64,000 nucleotides of DNA from Malacoraja senta. Its lineage: Eukaryota. The stretch spans positions 2,232,001-2,296,000 of the forward strand of contig CM075991.1 in the NCBI GenBank assembly GCA_038087875.1, written 5' to 3'. The notes beneath the pieces were generated by a model. It made no database searches. It was not told the origin of the DNA and worked only from the letters and a program-made list of their open reading frames with translations. Numbering within the stretch: position 1 is the stretch's first letter; the number at the start of each line of letters is the position of its first letter. This document shows, piece after piece, positions 20,824 through 60,254 of this stretch. A program made the position numbers and the translations under genes.

Positions 20824-23262
20824 TCAGTATCCCGTACCTGCCTTCTCTCCATACCCCCTGATCCCTTTAGCCACAAGGGCCACATCTAACTCCCTCTTAA
20901 ATATAGCCAATGAACTGGCGTCAACTACCCTCTGTGGCAGAGAGTTCCAGAGATTCACCACTCTCTGTGTGAAAAAGTTTTTCCTCATCTCGGTCTTAAA
21001 GGATTTCCCCCTTATCCTTAAGCTGTGACCCCTTGTCCTGGACTTCCCCAACATCGGGAACAATCTTCCTGCATCTAGCCTGTCCAACCCCATAAGAATT
21101 TTGTACGTTTCTATAAGATCCCCTCTCAATCTCCTAAATTCTAGCGAGTATAAGCCAAGTCTATCCAGTCTTTCTTCATATGAAAGTCCTGACATCCCAG
21201 GAATCAGTCTGGTGAACCTTCTCTGTACTCCCTCTATGGCTATAATGTCCTTCCTCAGATTTGGAGACCAAAACTGTACGCAATACTCCAGGTGTGGTCT
21301 CACCAAGACCCTGTACAACTGCAGTAGAACCTCCCTGCTCCTATACTCAAATCCTCTTGCTATGAAGGCCAACATACCATTCGCTTTCTTCACTGCCTGC
21401 TGCACCTGCATGCCTACTTTCAATGACTGGTGTACCATGACACCCAGGTCTCGCTGCACCTCCCCATTTCCTAATCGGCCACCATTTAGATAATAGTCTG
21501 CCTTCCCGTTTTTGCCACCAAAGTGGATAACCTCACATTTATCCACATTATACTGCATCTGCCAAACATTTGCCCACTCACCCAGCCTATCCAAGTCACC
21601 TTGCAGTCTCCTAGCATCCTCCTCACAGCTAACACTGCCCCCCAGCTTAGTGTCATCCGCAAACTTGGAGATGTTGCTTTCAATTCCCTCGTCCAGATCA
21701 TTAATATAAATTGTAAATAGCTGGGGTCCCAGCACTGAGCCTTGCGGTACCCCACTAGTCACTGCCTGCCATTGTGAAAAGGACCCGTTTACTCCTACTC
21801 TTTGCTTCCTGTTTGCCAGCCAGTTCTCTATCCACATCAATACTGAACCCCCAATACCGTGTGATTTAAGCTTGTATCCTAATCTCTTATGTGGTACCTT
21901 GTCGAAAGCCTTCTGAAAGTCCAGATACAACACATCCACTGGTTCTCCCCTATCCACTCTACTAGTTACATCCTCGAAAAATTCTATAAGATTCGTCAGA
22001 CACGATTTACCTTTCGTAAATCCATGCTGACTTTGTCCAATGATTTCACCACTTTCCAAATGTGCTGCTATCCCATCTTTAATAACTGACTCTAGCAGTT
22101 TCCCCACTACCGATGTTAGACTAACTGGTCTGTAATTCCCCGTTTTCTCTCTCCCTCCCTTCTTAAAAAGTGGGGTTACGTTTGCTACCCTCCAATCCTC
22201 AGGAACTACTCCAGAATCTAAAGAATTTTGAAAAATTATCACTAATGCATCCACTATTTCTGGAGCTACTTCCTTAAGTACTCTGGGATGCAGCCTATCT
22301 GGCCCTGGGGATTTATCGGCCTTTAATCCATTCAATTTACCCAACACCACTTCCCGACTAACCTGGATTTCACTCAGTTCCTCCATCTCCTTTGACCCGC
22401 GGCCCCCTGCTATTTCCGGCAGATTATTTATGTCTTCCTTAGTGAAGACGGAACCAAAGTAGTTATTCAATTGGTCCGCCATATCCTTGTTCCCCATGAT
22501 CAATTCACCTGTTTCTGACTGCAAGGGACCTACATTTGTTTTAACTAATCTCTTTCTCTTCACATATCTATAAAAACTTTTGCAGTCAGTTTTTATGTTC
22601 CCTGCCAGTTTCCTTTCATAATCTATTTTCCCTTTCCTAATTAAGCCCTTTGTCCTCCTCTGCTGGTCTCTGAATTTCTCCCAGTCCTCTGGTATGCTGC
22701 TTTTTCTGGCTAATTTGTACGCAACATCTTTTGCTTTGATACTATCCCTGATTTCCCTTGTTATCCACGGATGCACTACCTTCCCTGATTTATTCTTTTG
22801 CCAAACTGGGATGAACATTTTTTGTAGTTCATCCATGCAGTCTTTAAATGCCTTCCATTGCATATCCACCGTCAACCCTTTTAGAACTAATTGCCAGTCA
22901 ATCTTGGCCAATTCACGTCTCATATCCTCAAAGTTACCTTTCTTTAAGTTCAGAACCGTTGTTTCTGAATTAACAATGTCACTCTCCATCCTAATGAAGA
23001 ACTCAACCATATTATGGTCACTCTTGCCCAAGGGGGCACGCACAACAAGTCTGCTAACTAACCCTTCCTCATTACTCAATACCCAGTCTAAAATAGCCTG
23101 CTCTCTCGTTGGTTCCTCTTCATGTTGGTTTAGATAACTATCCCGCATACATTCCAAGAAATCCTCTTCCTCAGCACCCCTGCCAATTTGATTCACCCAA
23201 TCTATATGTAGATTGAAGTCACCCATTATAACTGTTTTGCCTTTGTTGCACGCATTTCTAAT
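20824..23262 (-). CDS. CR1 LINE ORF2 (partial APE endonuclease plus reverse transcriptase), 5'-truncated and uninterrupted; element spans ~20731-23262
   Basis: GDFN and SDH (APE); KSPGPD, NYRPVSLTS, QHGF, YLDFQKAFD, GVPQGSVLGP, FADD (RT); no stop in 800+ codons. Confidence 0.95.
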   Translation of the reverse strand: MRNACNKGKTVIMGDFNLHIDWVNQIGRGAEEEDFLECMRDSYLNQHEEEPTREQAILDWVLSNEEGLVSRLVVRAPLGKSDHNMVEFFIRMESDIVNSETTVLNLKKGNFEDMRRELAKIDWQLVLKGLTVDMQWKAFKDCMDELQKMFIPVWQKNKSGKVVHPWITREIRDSIKAKDVAYKLARKSSIPEDWEKFRDQQRRTKGLIRKGKIDYERKLAGNIKTDCKSFYRYVKRKRLVKTNVGPLQSETGELIMGNKDMADQLNNYFGSVFTKEDINNLPEIAGGRGSKEMEELSEIQVSREVVLGKLNGLKADKSPGPDRLHPRVLKEVAPEIVDALVIIFQNSLDSGVVPEDWRVANVTPLFKKGGREKTGNYRPVSLTSVVGKLLESVIKDGIAAHLESGEIIGQSQHGFTKGKSCLTNLIEFFEDVTSRVDRGEPVDVLYLDFQKAFDKVPHKRLGYKLKSHGIGGSVLMWIENWLANRKQRVGVNGSFSQWQAVTSGVPQGSVLGPQLFTIYINDLDEGIESNISKFADDTKLGGSVSCEEDARRLQGDLDRLGEWANVWQMQYNVDKCEVIHFGGKNGKADYYLNGGRLGNGEVQRDLGVMVHQSLKVGMQVQQAVKKANGMLAFIARGFEYRSREVLLQLYRVLVRPHLEYCVQFWSPNLRKDIIAIEGVQRRFTRLIPGMSGLSYEERLDRLGLYSLEFRRLRGDLIETYKILMGLDRLDAGRLFPMLGKSRTRGHSLRIRGKSFKTEMRKNFFTQRVVNLWNSLPQRVVDASSLAIFKRELDVALVAKGIRGYGEKAGTGY

Positions 23263-23394
23263 GGTCTAATAGGACAGGTTTACAAGGATATGGGCCAAAT
23301 GTAGGCAGGTGGGACTAGTGTAGTTGGGACATGTTGGTTGATGTGCACGATGGGCCGAAGGGCCTGTTTCCACACTGTGTGACTCTATGAATCT

Positions 23395-40361: not shown

Positions 40362-41292
40362 AACCAGTCTATACACATGACTGCGTAGCCGGACATAGTG
40401 CGAACTCCATCATCAAGTTCGCTGATGACACCACTGTTGTGGGACGTATCACTGATGGGGATGAGTCAGAGTATAGAAGAGAGATCGAGCAACTGTCCAT
40501 ATGGTGCCAGCACAACAACCTGGCCCTCAACACCAGCAAAACCAAGGAACTGATTGTGGACTTTGGAAGGAGTAGGATGGGGACCCACAGTCCCGTTTAT
40601 ATCAACGGGTCGATGGTTGAAAGGGTCAAGAGCTTCAAATTCCTGGGCGTGCACATCTCTGAAGATCTTTCCTGGTCCGAGAACAATTATGCCATTATTA
40701 AGAAAGCACATCAGTGCCTCTACTTCCTGAGAAGATTACGGAGAGTCGGTTTGTCAAGGAGGACTCTCTCTAACTTCTACAGGTGCACAGTAGAGAGCAT
40801 GCTGACCGGTTGCATCGTGGCTTGGTTCAGCAACTTGAGCGCCCTGGAGAGGAAAAGATTACAAAAAGTAGTAAACACTGCCCAGTCCATCATCGGCTCT
40901 GACCTCCCTTCCATCGAGGGGATCTACCACAGTCGCTGCCTCAAAAAGGCTGGCAGCATCATCAAGGACCCACACCATCCTGGCCACACACTCATCTCCC
41001 TACTACCTTCAGGTAGAAGGTACAGGAGCCTGAAGACTGCAACGACCAGGTTCAGGAATAGCTACTTCCCCACAGCCATCAGGCTATTAAACCTGGCTCG
41101 GACATAACACTGAACTTTACTAGCCAATACTGTTATTTGCACTTTATCAGTATATTGACCATTGTGTATATATTTATAGAATGCCTTGTAGTAAATGCCT
41201 ACTATGTTCTGTTGTGCTCAAGCAAAGCAAGAATTTCATTGTCCTACCAGGGACACATGACAAAAAACTCACTTGACTTGACTTGACTTGAC
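40362..41292 (+). mobile_element. Rex1/Babar LINE 3' part
   Basis: IIKFADDTTVVG; ORF 40439-41107 LNTSKTKELIVDF...LLPSGRRYRSL; (cttga)n tail. Confidence 0.9.
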
Positions 41293-50288: not shown

Positions 50289-50749
50289 GAGGAGGCAATG
50301 TTGTGTTGGAAGGAACTGCAGATACTGGTTTTAACCGACGATAGACACAAAAAGCTGGAGTAACTCCGCGAGACAGGCAGCATCTCTGGAGAGAAGGAAT
50401 AGGTGAAATTTCGGGTCAAGACCCTTCTTCAGACTCGGATCCAAAATGTCACCTATTCCTTTTCTCCAGAGATGCTGCCTGACCTGCTGAGTTGCTCCAG
50501 CTTTTTGTGTCTATCTTCAGCCAATGTTGTTTGACTGTTTAAGAAGGACAGATGTGGCAAACTAGAAAAGTTATAGGACATTGAGCTTTACATCAGCTGC
50601 AATAATATTAGTGGAGAAGATTCTTTGGGATGGGATCTACACATGTCTGCAAAACCATGCAAGTGTTTAGGGACAGCCAACATGTCTTTGTGCAGTGGAA
50701 GTCATGTCTTACAACATTAATATGTTTCTTGAGGAGGTTACAATAGTGA

Positions 50750-52537
50750 CCTTGGTAAGGCCATCACAAAAGCCAAAAGGGACTTCTGCTCCAAGCTGGA
50801 GGATGAGATGGATGTTCGGCAGCTGTGGTGGGGGCTTGAATGCCATCACCTCCTACAAGGCGAAATCAGGAGGCAGCTCAAATGTCAGCGAAGCATCACT
50901 CCCTGACAAGCTCAATGCGTTCTACGCACGCTTTGACAGGGAGAATACTGATGTGCCTTCCCGAGCCCCCATTCGCTGTGATGGTATTTCAGTCTCAGTC
51001 ACAGAGGCCGACGTCAGAAGATCTTTCAGAGGGGTGAACCCTCAGAAAGCCCCTGGACCTGATGGTAGACCCGGCCGTGTTCTAAAAACCAATGCGGGCC
51101 AACTGGCTGGAGTTTTTACGGACATTTTCAACCTCTCACTTCTGAGGTCTCAGGTTCCCACCTGCTTTAAAAGGGCATCAATAATACCGGTGCCCAAGAA
51201 GAGTAAGGTGACGTGCCTCAATGATTATCGACCTGTGGCACTAACGTCTGTGGTGATGAAGTGCTTTGAGAGGTTGATTATGGCGCATATCAACTCCTAC
51301 CTCGACATGAACCTCGACCCACTGCAGTTCGCTTGCCGCCACAACAGATCAACAGTGGATGCGATCTCACTGGCCCTCCACTCCGCTCTGGACCACTTGG
51401 ATAACTGAAACTCATATGTCAGGCTGTTATTCATTGACTTCAGCTCGGCGTTTAATACAATCATCATCTCCAAGCTGGTTGCCAAGCTCTGAGATCTGGG
51501 TCTCTGCACATCCCTCTGCAATTCCTCATCCACAGACCACACTCTGTCCGTATTGGTGGAAATGTGTCATCCTTGATAACAATCAGCACGGGAGCACCTC
51601 AAGGCTGCGTGCTCAGCCCCCTGCTGTACTCACTCTAAGTTCATGACTGCGTAGCCGGACATAGTGCGAACTCCATCATCAAGTTCGCAGACGACACCAC
51701 TATTGTGAGACGTATCACTGATGGGGACGAATCAGAGTATAGAAGTGAGATCGACCGATTGACCAAATGGTGCCAGCACAATAACCTGGATCTCAACACC
51801 AGCAAAACCAAGGAACTGATTGTGGACTTTGGAAGGGGTTGGATAGGGACCCACAATCCCATTTACATCAACGGGACGATGGTGGAAAGGGTCAAGAACT
51901 TCAAATTCCTGGGCGTGCACATTTCGGAAGATCTTTCCTGGTCCCAGCACACTGATGCAATTATAAAGAAAGCACATCAGCGCCTCTACTTCCTGAGATG
52001 ATTACGGAGAGTTGGTATGTCAAAGAGGACTCTCTCGAACGTCTACACGTGCACAGTAGAGAGCACGCTGACTGGTTGCATCGTGGCTTGGTTTGGCAAC
52101 TTGAGCGTCCAGGAGCGGAAAAGGATGCAGAAAGTTGTAAACACTGCCCAGTCCATCATCGGCTCTGACCTCCCCACCATCGAAGGGATCTATCGCAGTC
52201 GCTGTCTCAAAAAGGCAGCCAACATCATCAAGGACCCACACCATCCTGGCCAAGCACTCATCTCTCTGCTACCATCGGGCAGAAGGTACAGGTGCCTGAA
52301 ATCTGTTACATCCAGGTTCAGGAACATCTGCTTCCCCACAGCCATCAGGCTATTAAACTCGCCAACAAACAGACTCTGAACTGTAACAGCCTATTGCACT
52401 TTATCTGCTTATTTATGTGTATATTGAACTGAACTGTGCTGTATTTTTGCTTACAATACTCTGTCGTGCTGCAGCAAGCAAGAATTTCATTGTCCTATCT
52501 GGGACACATGACAATAAACTCTCTTGACTTGACTTGA
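50750..52537 (+). mobile_element. Rex1/Babar LINE, degraded RT
   Basis: [55 protein letters not shown]; stops and frameshifts; (cttga)n tail. Confidence 0.92.
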
Positions 52538-59140: not shown

Positions 59141-59411
59141 CTTGTCCTACTTGATAAAGCTGGGCAAAGCAGTTGTTTCCTGGGGAGAATTACGGTGGAA
59201 AACCACTTATACCCATTGATATTTATCAACCGGAGTTAAAACGTATAAAATGTCTGGGAAAAACATTGAAATGAACATTAAAAAGACACAAAGTGCTGGA
59301 GTAACTCAGCGGGACAGGCAGCAACTCTGGAGCACATGAACATGTGACGCTTCGGGTCGAGACCCTTCTTCAGAAACCAGCATCTGCAGTTCTTTATTTC
59401 TACATTAAAGT

Positions 59412-59553
59412 CTACTTCTTCTTGCGTATGGCGTGCACGGCCCAAAGTTGTACGACAACTTGTTCTATTTGATCTTATTGATTGTGCATGGTTGATTGCA
59501 TTCGTTGAAACAGGGCGGATCACGTGAAGGTTGCAATCTCCCACCGCAAGAAG
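59412..59553 (-). mobile_element. 142-bp short retroelement with HDV-like ribozyme head
   Basis: 10-bp TSD acattaaagt (59402-59411, 59554-59563); (aag)n tail; no tRNA boxes. Confidence 0.8.
59494..59547 (-). ncRNA. Candidate minimal HDV-like self-cleaving ribozyme (probably decayed copy)
   Basis: GCGGUGG-GA-GAUUGCA-ACC-UUCACGU-GAU-CCGCCCU-G-UUUCAA-CGAA-UGCAAUC fits P1-P2-P3-L3-P3'-P1'-G-(no P4)-CGAA-P2'. Confidence 0.7.
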
Positions 59554-60254
59554 ACATTAAAGTGAACATGTCTTGTAAAGAACATTTATCTACATTTTAA
59601 GATATCTTCTCAGCTTCTCAGCTATCACTAACTGCCTTCTTTTACGTAATGCTAATTTCAATTACAGTAAAATATCTCAGCAATTTGAGCAATTATTATG
59701 ATTTATCTAAAATGATATAAACTTGCATTGATCTGATTACTTCAATTATAAAACTAATCTAATTAGATTTGTCATCATTTTTAAATCCTTACAAGTCTAG
59801 GTTCAGTTTATTATTGTCACATGTACAGTGAAAAACTTTGTTTGCTTGCTAACCATTCTGACCAGATTACAATACACAGATGCAATCAGACTCAAGTACA
59901 GTAGATAGAGCAAAGACATAGACAGGAAACTTAGATGAGTAGTAGACCCTTCTCTGCAAAGAACATGACAAGAGGCACCATCTTCTACAATCATCTTTCT
60001 GTAATCTCCTTAAGGTTATTATGTAACTCCGTTAAGGATGGCAATCCGCTGGGATTCCTGCACCATTCCAGTCCTTACTTCTTATGATGTTCATTATTCC
60101 TTCATTGTTGGCCAAGGACCTTCAGCTATTAAAGCTCTCAGCATTTTTCACACAGGGGGTGGTTGCTTATATGGAGGAGGTAGTTGAGGTACTGTAACAT
60201 TCAAAAGACATTTGGACAGGTACATGGTTAGGAAAGGTTCAGAAGGATATAAAA

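Follow-up and report, generated by a model that had tools for sequence, protein, structure and literature searches.

A predicted P4-less HDV-like ribozyme at the head of a short bipartite derivative of a Vingi-type LINE in Malacoraja senta

What kind of retroelement opens with a fold that resembles a self-cleaving ribozyme, and which machinery would copy it? The question is raised by a 142-bp insert on the minus strand, at 59412-59553 of a 64,000-nucleotide stretch of the Malacoraja senta genome (contig CM075991.1, positions 2,232,001 to 2,296,000; hereafter the window), for which a ribozyme-headed, SINE-like family mobilised by an Ingi/Vingi-type LINE had been proposed from the letters of the DNA alone. 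It is established that HDV-like ribozymes can stand at the 5' ends of LINEs as well as of certain non-autonomous elements (PMC4035085, PMC6765202, PMC8256844), and bipartite non-autonomous LINEs have been described from RTE, Ingi, Vingi and R2 (PMC5786205); examples of such SIDEs are NARTc from L1Tc, RIME from ingi, the R2 SIDEs and the Vingi-1_EE derivatives (PMC5786205, PMC4035085). The available text of PMC5786205 names six clades with 5' ribozymes, R1, R2, R4, RTE, Ingi as well as LOA, and Vingi is not among them. Ribozyme-headed bipartite elements as such are already known. In the literature searched we found no Vingi ribozyme (Repbase and Dfam lay outside this scope and may already contain the family or such a ribozyme), no Vingi element in sharks or skates, no description of end-to-end complementarity in such elements and no paper deriving the CPEB3 ribozyme from Vingi; most of the interest lies in the end helix and the CPEB3 link described below.

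The window copy and its family

The insert is present as described, with an exact 10-bp flanking duplication and an (AAG)n tail (Table 1), and its helices could be retraced as claimed: a 7-bp P2, a P1 containing a G1-U pair and a single C-C mismatch, a P3 with one C-A mismatch, a 7-nt L3, a one-pair P1.1 and a CGAA junction. Its extreme 5' end had been read as an inverted piece of its own tail, and indeed an exact reverse complement of element positions 128-136 occupies its first 9 nt, while base 10 does not match. Six of these nucleotides are extra and three cover G1-G3, to which the C-C mismatch in P1 can be traced, again as suggested. The inverted piece is private to the window copy: CTTCTT within the 8 nt before G1 occurs in 1 of 81 examined copies, the window copy itself. 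With its 6 extra nucleotides and 10-bp duplication the copy is atypical against the family norm, and it diverges from the consensus by 5.3%, compared with a mean of 2.7% for 57 copies of the CGAA type introduced below; it is a damaged member and probably a dead descendant. The spacer of about 17 nt looks, in the alignments, as though the end of the 5' part had undergone a short duplication; it also extends a small hairpin.

Table 1. Features of the window copy, in window coordinates, and loci of related families
Feature	Position	Strand	Remark
Target-site duplication, tail-side copy, 10 bp	59402..59411		
(AAG)n tail, final unit altered	59412..59423	-	
Segment common to the LINE's last 44 nt, tail included	59412..59458	-	90-95%
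Predicted end-to-end helix, 3' arm	59430..59439	-	adjoins terminal pentamer on its 5' side
Stretch of ~17 nt separating the two LINE-derived parts	59459..59475	-	read from alignments
Segment common to the Vingi-type LINE 5' end (nt 1-77)	59476..59547	-	family consensus 88-92% identical to LINE copies
Predicted end-to-end helix, 5' arm	59483..59490	-	here shortened by loss of 4 nt and by one substitution
Predicted P4-less HDV-like ribozyme, 54 nt	59494..59547	-	two mismatches in window copy
Ribozyme J4/2	59501-59504	-	
Ribozyme P1.1 G	59511	-	
Ribozyme L3	59522-59528	-	
Ribozyme P3	59529-59531 pairing 59519-59521	-	
Ribozyme P2	59532-59538 pairing 59494-59500	-	
Ribozyme P1	59541-59547 pairing 59512-59518	-	
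Ribozyme G1	59547	-	
Element's own 3' end repeated in inverted orientation, 9 nt	59545..59553	-	1/81 copies
Target-site duplication, head-side copy, 10 bp, exact	59554..59563		
Inverted heads of families C, D and E	G000 loci L259-L280		e.g. L266:1501-1579
Family F loci	L275, L277, L281-L284, L288-L298		

No host gene was identified around the insert among 25 of the window's 74 open stretches, whose scan gave only RT-type pieces of other retroelements. One open stretch of 813 aa (20824-23265, minus strand) with endonuclease and RT domains is a young LINE of another family, and lesser RT pieces lie at 40364-41107 and 50671-52001.

Does the insert belong to a family? A DNA search of the 1.94-Gb genome returned 2,484 candidate copies, in line with the multi-copy element that had been predicted. 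Two mutually exclusive core patterns found 1,180 exact matches of a CGAA type and 1,995 of a CTAA type (reversed controls 0), summing to over 3,000 copies, the CTAA-type count also covering a small number of LINE 5' ends (2 of the 30 inspected). Sixty CGAA-type copies were fetched and three duplicates dropped, and the consensus of the remaining 57 non-redundant copies restores P1 and P3, as expected from the original prediction. Every pair and the junction are intact in 41 of these 57, an upper bound since copies were chosen by similarity or exact core match. We call the CGAA type, with its mean divergence of 2.7%, the younger subfamily; the two subfamilies differ where the fold tolerates change, namely in P1 (U-G versus U-A) and in the junction (CGAA versus CTAA).

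With 24 further copies (2 duplicates and 4 tail-less copies dropped), 81 were available for the analysis of insertion sites. Target duplications flank 64 of them, against 0 of 405 mismatched-flank controls; their length is 11-13 bp in 51 of the 64, and they end at G1 or one base into it in 53 and one base before it in 9. Together with the 2,484 candidates, these counts show that the insert and its duplication are not a product of chance. The family thus begins at G1 (59547 in the window), which makes the typical unit 129 nt plus tail. The base preceding G1 is most commonly T (31 of 56) and the base 11 positions upstream most commonly A (29 of 56), which suggests a weak target preference.

The predicted fold and RNA 5' ends at G1

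The consensus pairs at 18 of 18 positions of a predicted nested double pseudoknot made of P1, P2, P3 and P1.1, with a G1 wobble at the predicted cut site, which in this family coincides with the 5' end of the copies and of RNAs in a related species. Minimum-energy folding cannot represent a pseudoknot, and it was not used as evidence. The cytosine of J4/2 is the catalytic residue of HDV-like ribozymes; C-N-A-A stands at this junction in all six families that we aligned (see below), although N varies between G, T and C. P4 is absent and replaced by a linker of only 6 nt, which fits the minimal subtype of PMC10879173, and the minimal P4-less HDV-like and theta ribozymes reported there likewise form a nested double pseudoknot with the cut site at G1. 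L3 and the single-pair P1.1 are the same as in the CPEB3 ribozyme (RF00622; PMC8233481).

Across 16 sequences of the six families, 91.2% of cells pair, compared with 34-51% in slid controls. Compensatory changes on both sides occur at 11 of the 18 pairs, in P1, P2 and P3, and the covariation score was reached by none of 500 shuffles, although 13 of the 16 rows come from families retrieved with the CPEB3 model, which favours pairing, and relatedness inflates the score too. Covariation across related families had been anticipated, and such compensatory changes are, as far as an alignment can tell, the trace of selection on RNA structure. The Rfam scan of the window copy brought up nothing relevant (three chance matches), and an intact copy scored 14.4 bits (E 1.7) on the HDV-like model RF02682, short of the cut-off of 44. 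Of the proposed checks, the Rfam models placed the window family below their cut-offs, and the descriptor matched a sister family, B: it located a complete HDV-like fold precisely at this family's 5' end at 2 of 40 loci (-1944/-1977), with 2 weak matches elsewhere and none in 312 kb of shuffled sequence. On this modelling, the 54-nt fold is predicted to be an HDV-like, P4-less, self-cleaving ribozyme. According to the accessible parts of PMC10879173, nearly 99% of minimal HDV-like ribozymes lie in Caudoviricetes phages, often beside tRNAs; unlike these, the fold described here heads a retroelement in thousands of copies in a 1.94-Gb animal genome, so that a ribozyme type so far almost confined to phages would now be found at the head of an animal retroposon.

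Do RNAs begin where the fold would be cut? We mapped RNA-seq reads of a related species to an intact copy, using about 1% of the reads of the single-cell run X21. Here, 999 reads carried a loose end directly before G1 with a consensus agreement of 0.89, and we take this consensus to be a template-switch oligo. If the Gs are counted, the oligo accounts for three and the element for four, which places the start of the RNA at G1. The bulk run X23 gave 183 reads with such loose ends (agreement 0.54), and among the rows listed for X24 (578 further rows) there was no adaptor row; the table of molecule starts contained no entries. Reads running through G1 into unrelated or varied upstream sequence numbered 496 (X21), 652 (X23) and 648 (X24). 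Discrete RNA 5' ends at the predicted cut site thus exist in this related species. They fit cleavage and also a capped start, and a capped transcript starting at G2 would yield the same reads; moreover, the run of Gs favours template-switch artefacts.

The same reads bear on a different reading, in which the 77-nt 5' part is mainly an internal RNA polymerase II promoter resembling Pr77, its 5' end a transcription start, and the fold secondary or vestigial. Template switching prefers capped ends, the sense reads in X21 exceed the antisense reads 3-8 fold, poly(A)-like loose ends occur at the tail (637 reads in three rows), and copies of a second short family, F, lack G1; all this would suit a promoter. 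However, a promoter does not call for the compensatory changes seen between families in P1, P2 and P3, with the selection on RNA structure that they indicate, nor for a junction that keeps C-N-A-A while N varies, and we regard this reading as unlikely, though worth keeping in mind. Both roles can coexist: Pr77 of L1Tc is reported to be promoter and ribozyme at once (PMC4035085; PMC1874656).

The parent LINE and the proposed route of amplification

Two CTAA-type loci run from the shared head into an endonuclease reading frame. A search with this LINE sequence gave 31 candidates, of which 12 stretches were fetched, and the shared 3' part closes four near-full-length copies among them. Two copies, L204 and L205, span both shared ends, which lie 2.8 kb apart; compared with the consensus of the short element they are 88-92% identical over nt 1-77 and 90-95% over the last 39-44 nt. 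An autonomous Ingi/Vingi-type LINE sharing both ends, as had been postulated, was thus found. Pieces of this LINE match APE and RT domain models, and no RNase H match was obtained among 7 pieces; the 120 relatives listed are mostly APE+RT proteins of about 1,000 aa, none with PF00075, and the closest intact relative among them is a 1,019-aa APE+RT protein of 72% identity. The parent therefore shows the architecture of the Vingi clade, a single ORF with APE and RT and no RNase H, its placement being by architecture and not by a tree with named Vingi or Ingi references; Vingi LINEs are likewise described as compact single-ORF elements with APE endonuclease and RT and no RNase H (PMC13708176). 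Every parent copy that we saw is broken, with a divergence of about 10%, and the driver of the younger subfamily may therefore be a copy not yet found or a sister family.

Taken together, the element is, by comparison of these sequences, a bipartite internal-deletion derivative of a 2.8-kb Vingi-type LINE, composed of its first 77 and last 44 bases. Since both ends are common with the LINE and the coding region is absent, we class it as a bipartite non-autonomous LINE, that is, a SIDE: the ORF is deleted between shared ends, and the unit has been amplified independently with target duplications. Known SIDEs and the window family alike retain both ends of a parent LINE but not its ORF and are flanked by target duplications, and NARTc/L1Tc shares with it an HDV-like ribozyme within the first 77 nt (PMC4035085). 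Unlike those SIDEs, the window family resides in an animal genome, descends from a Vingi-type parent, measures only 129 nt and has a P4-less fold. The notion of a ribozyme-headed, SINE-like family is largely right: a predicted ribozyme fold does head the element, yet this head was not independently acquired and belongs to the LINE as its 5' terminus. A conventional Pol III SINE with a tRNA, 5S or 7SL head and a ribozyme-like fold by chance could be imagined from the SINE-like size and tail and from a consensus without an internal run of four T, yet the head is that of the LINE and no Rfam match to such heads was obtained, so that we give this explanation next to no credence. A tRNA-derived head was rejected, as no tRNA was found in 4 loci and no A or B box pattern was present.

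How would such a unit spread? The ends of the LINE are joined without the coding region, and we consider it likely that the predicted ribozyme frees the element from host transcripts at G1 and that the LINE protein copies it in trans. Internal deletion of a single-ORF APE+RT LINE gave the 129-nt unit, which multiplied to over 3,000 dispersed insertions with 11-13-bp duplications. Copies begin at G1, and RNAs with their 5' end at this base occur in a related species. The 54-nt nested double pseudoknot without P4 would then cleave itself, with the C of C-N-A-A as catalyst, and we infer from the modelled fold that the element is released from host transcripts in this way. The bases after P2 would pair with those before the terminal pentamer, joining both ends, and if the Vingi protein needs this helix, both ends would be kept. 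Finally, the copy would be inserted by target-primed reverse transcription starting at the (AAG)n tail, as is established for non-LTR elements.

Several smaller observations concern the parent and its deletion variants. An RT motif gave 204 matches in at least eight sister families; 20 loci from this search were all sister families, without the parent. A pattern that excluded the shared 3' end gave 192 matches, of which 30 were inspected; these were variants with deletions, truncated copies, or copies that later insertions had split, the parent LINE not being among these 30. Later insertions split 4 of the 30 (L073, L077, L086, L065) near element nt 106-110, and the same junction appears in three further listed matches. 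A 541-base query contained an unrelated 360-bp repeat, which swamped its matches. One variant of the short element has a different middle and retains more of the LINE 5' UTR, corresponding to another deletion junction, and rests on two near-identical loci (L123/L124:1380-1533). In L203, L204 and L205 the parent frame is open from the ribozyme onward, and an in-frame ATG overlaps J4/2 and P2; it could have a role in cap-independent translation, and the length of the open run is likely due to chance.

The predicted end-to-end helix and the CPEB3-like heads

The consensus folds nt 59-69 onto nt 114-124 in 11 pairs, the two arms stemming from opposite ends of the LINE. Is this helix peculiar to the window family? 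Complementarity between the bases after the ribozyme and the 3' end was found in eight families, A to F and two metagenome elements; it was first spotted on inspection of families A, B, D and F and then checked in C, E and the metagenome elements. With windows of 20 nt after P2 and 14 nt before the terminal pentamer, the mean is -13.2 kcal/mol for matched ends, compared with -5.0 +/- 2.7 for mismatched ones. The true assignment of 5' to 3' ends was the best of 40,320 permutations, and the own partner ranked first in 7 of 8 rows, these narrower windows having been chosen after a first run; that run used wider windows and included a decayed copy, and its signal was weaker (5 of 8 ranked first; p 0.079 for family A and 0.165 for M344). 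Along whole elements, equally stable windows numbered 2/2,681, 13/2,934, 25/2,958 and 1/3,026.

The helix also bears on whether the fold matters in the short element at all. If the fold worked in the parent LINE only, the short element would have inherited it passively and been amplified through its 3' end alone; heavily 5'-truncated copies with duplications (L067/L068, L075) imply that the 3' end suffices for insertion, and copies decay without visible constraint, as those of any retroposon do. However, no pair was lost from one subfamily master to the next, and the younger subfamily perfected the end helix to 11 pairs, family F and the single bipartite copy L268 independently kept ribozyme and tail, and discrete RNA 5' ends lie at G1. 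We therefore hold passive inheritance to be very improbable and return to a fold that would act in the short element itself.

Sister families came to light with the Rfam CPEB3 model (RF00622), which scored 59 candidates in the genome and gave 51 matches, 39 of them over the cut-off of 35. The 30 matches inspected were dispersed repeats of five families, B to F; the window's own family, with its different stem sequences, gave no match to this model. The sister Vingi heads score 39-64 bits, the family B ribozyme 57-64, and 9 family B copies lead into APE or RT sequence. Independently of the CPEB3 model, 5 of the 21 metagenome ORFs related to this LINE have the fold at 219-239 nt upstream, corresponding to 3 distinct elements (controls 0/21, 0/63 and 0/105, in total 0/189); the other 16 gave no ribozyme match, some having little upstream DNA. 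One metagenome element (L342/L344/L345:1271-1344) is full-length and Vingi-type with a target duplication, and its head reaches 55.6 bits on the CPEB3 model, with 35 of 37 CPEB3 consensus positions from G1 to P1.1 when counted on the alignment.

The CPEB3 ribozyme is single-copy and intronic, and according to PMC8233481 it is not found outside mammals. The sister Vingi heads appear, by their match to its model, as near-copies of this mammalian ribozyme, hinting at its origin. We lean, by a small measure, toward a broader reading: that the Vingi clade opens with an HDV-like ribozyme followed by a segment pairing with the 3' end, that the end-to-end helix is the target of the protein, which would explain the retention of both ends, and that the CPEB3 ribozyme is a Vingi 5' end domesticated after landing in the CPEB3 intron of an early mammal. 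Vingi would then join the ribozyme-bearing LINE clades, and the CPEB3-like heads would supply the outgroups missing in the accessible text of PMC8233481 and a concrete origin for a mammal-conserved ribozyme. The helix would offer a testable answer to the question, raised in PMC5786205, of why few LINE clades yield two-ended derivatives. Engineered Vingi systems use both UTRs on the template RNA, and PMC13708176, in the portion available, mentions ribozymes for R2 only; the helix would bear on template design for such Vingi-based gene-writing.

Family F is a second short P4-less family of about 170 nt, with a CCAA junction, tail and duplications and 14 exact core matches. Its copies start one base later, at the second G, with four G after the duplication and without G1; the partner of the terminal U of P1 is thus absent or supplied by the host, which the ribozyme model does not explain. 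Family D gave no more than 3 matches when searched as DNA; its agreement with the Rfam CPEB3 consensus extends to the P4 stem, and one of its copies is bipartite with a duplication. Most heads of families C, D and E are pieces of 100-130 nt that directly adjoin, in inverted orientation, internal parts of the Vingi-type family to which they belong, a recurrent 5'-inversion that may reflect the proximity of the two RNA ends during insertion.
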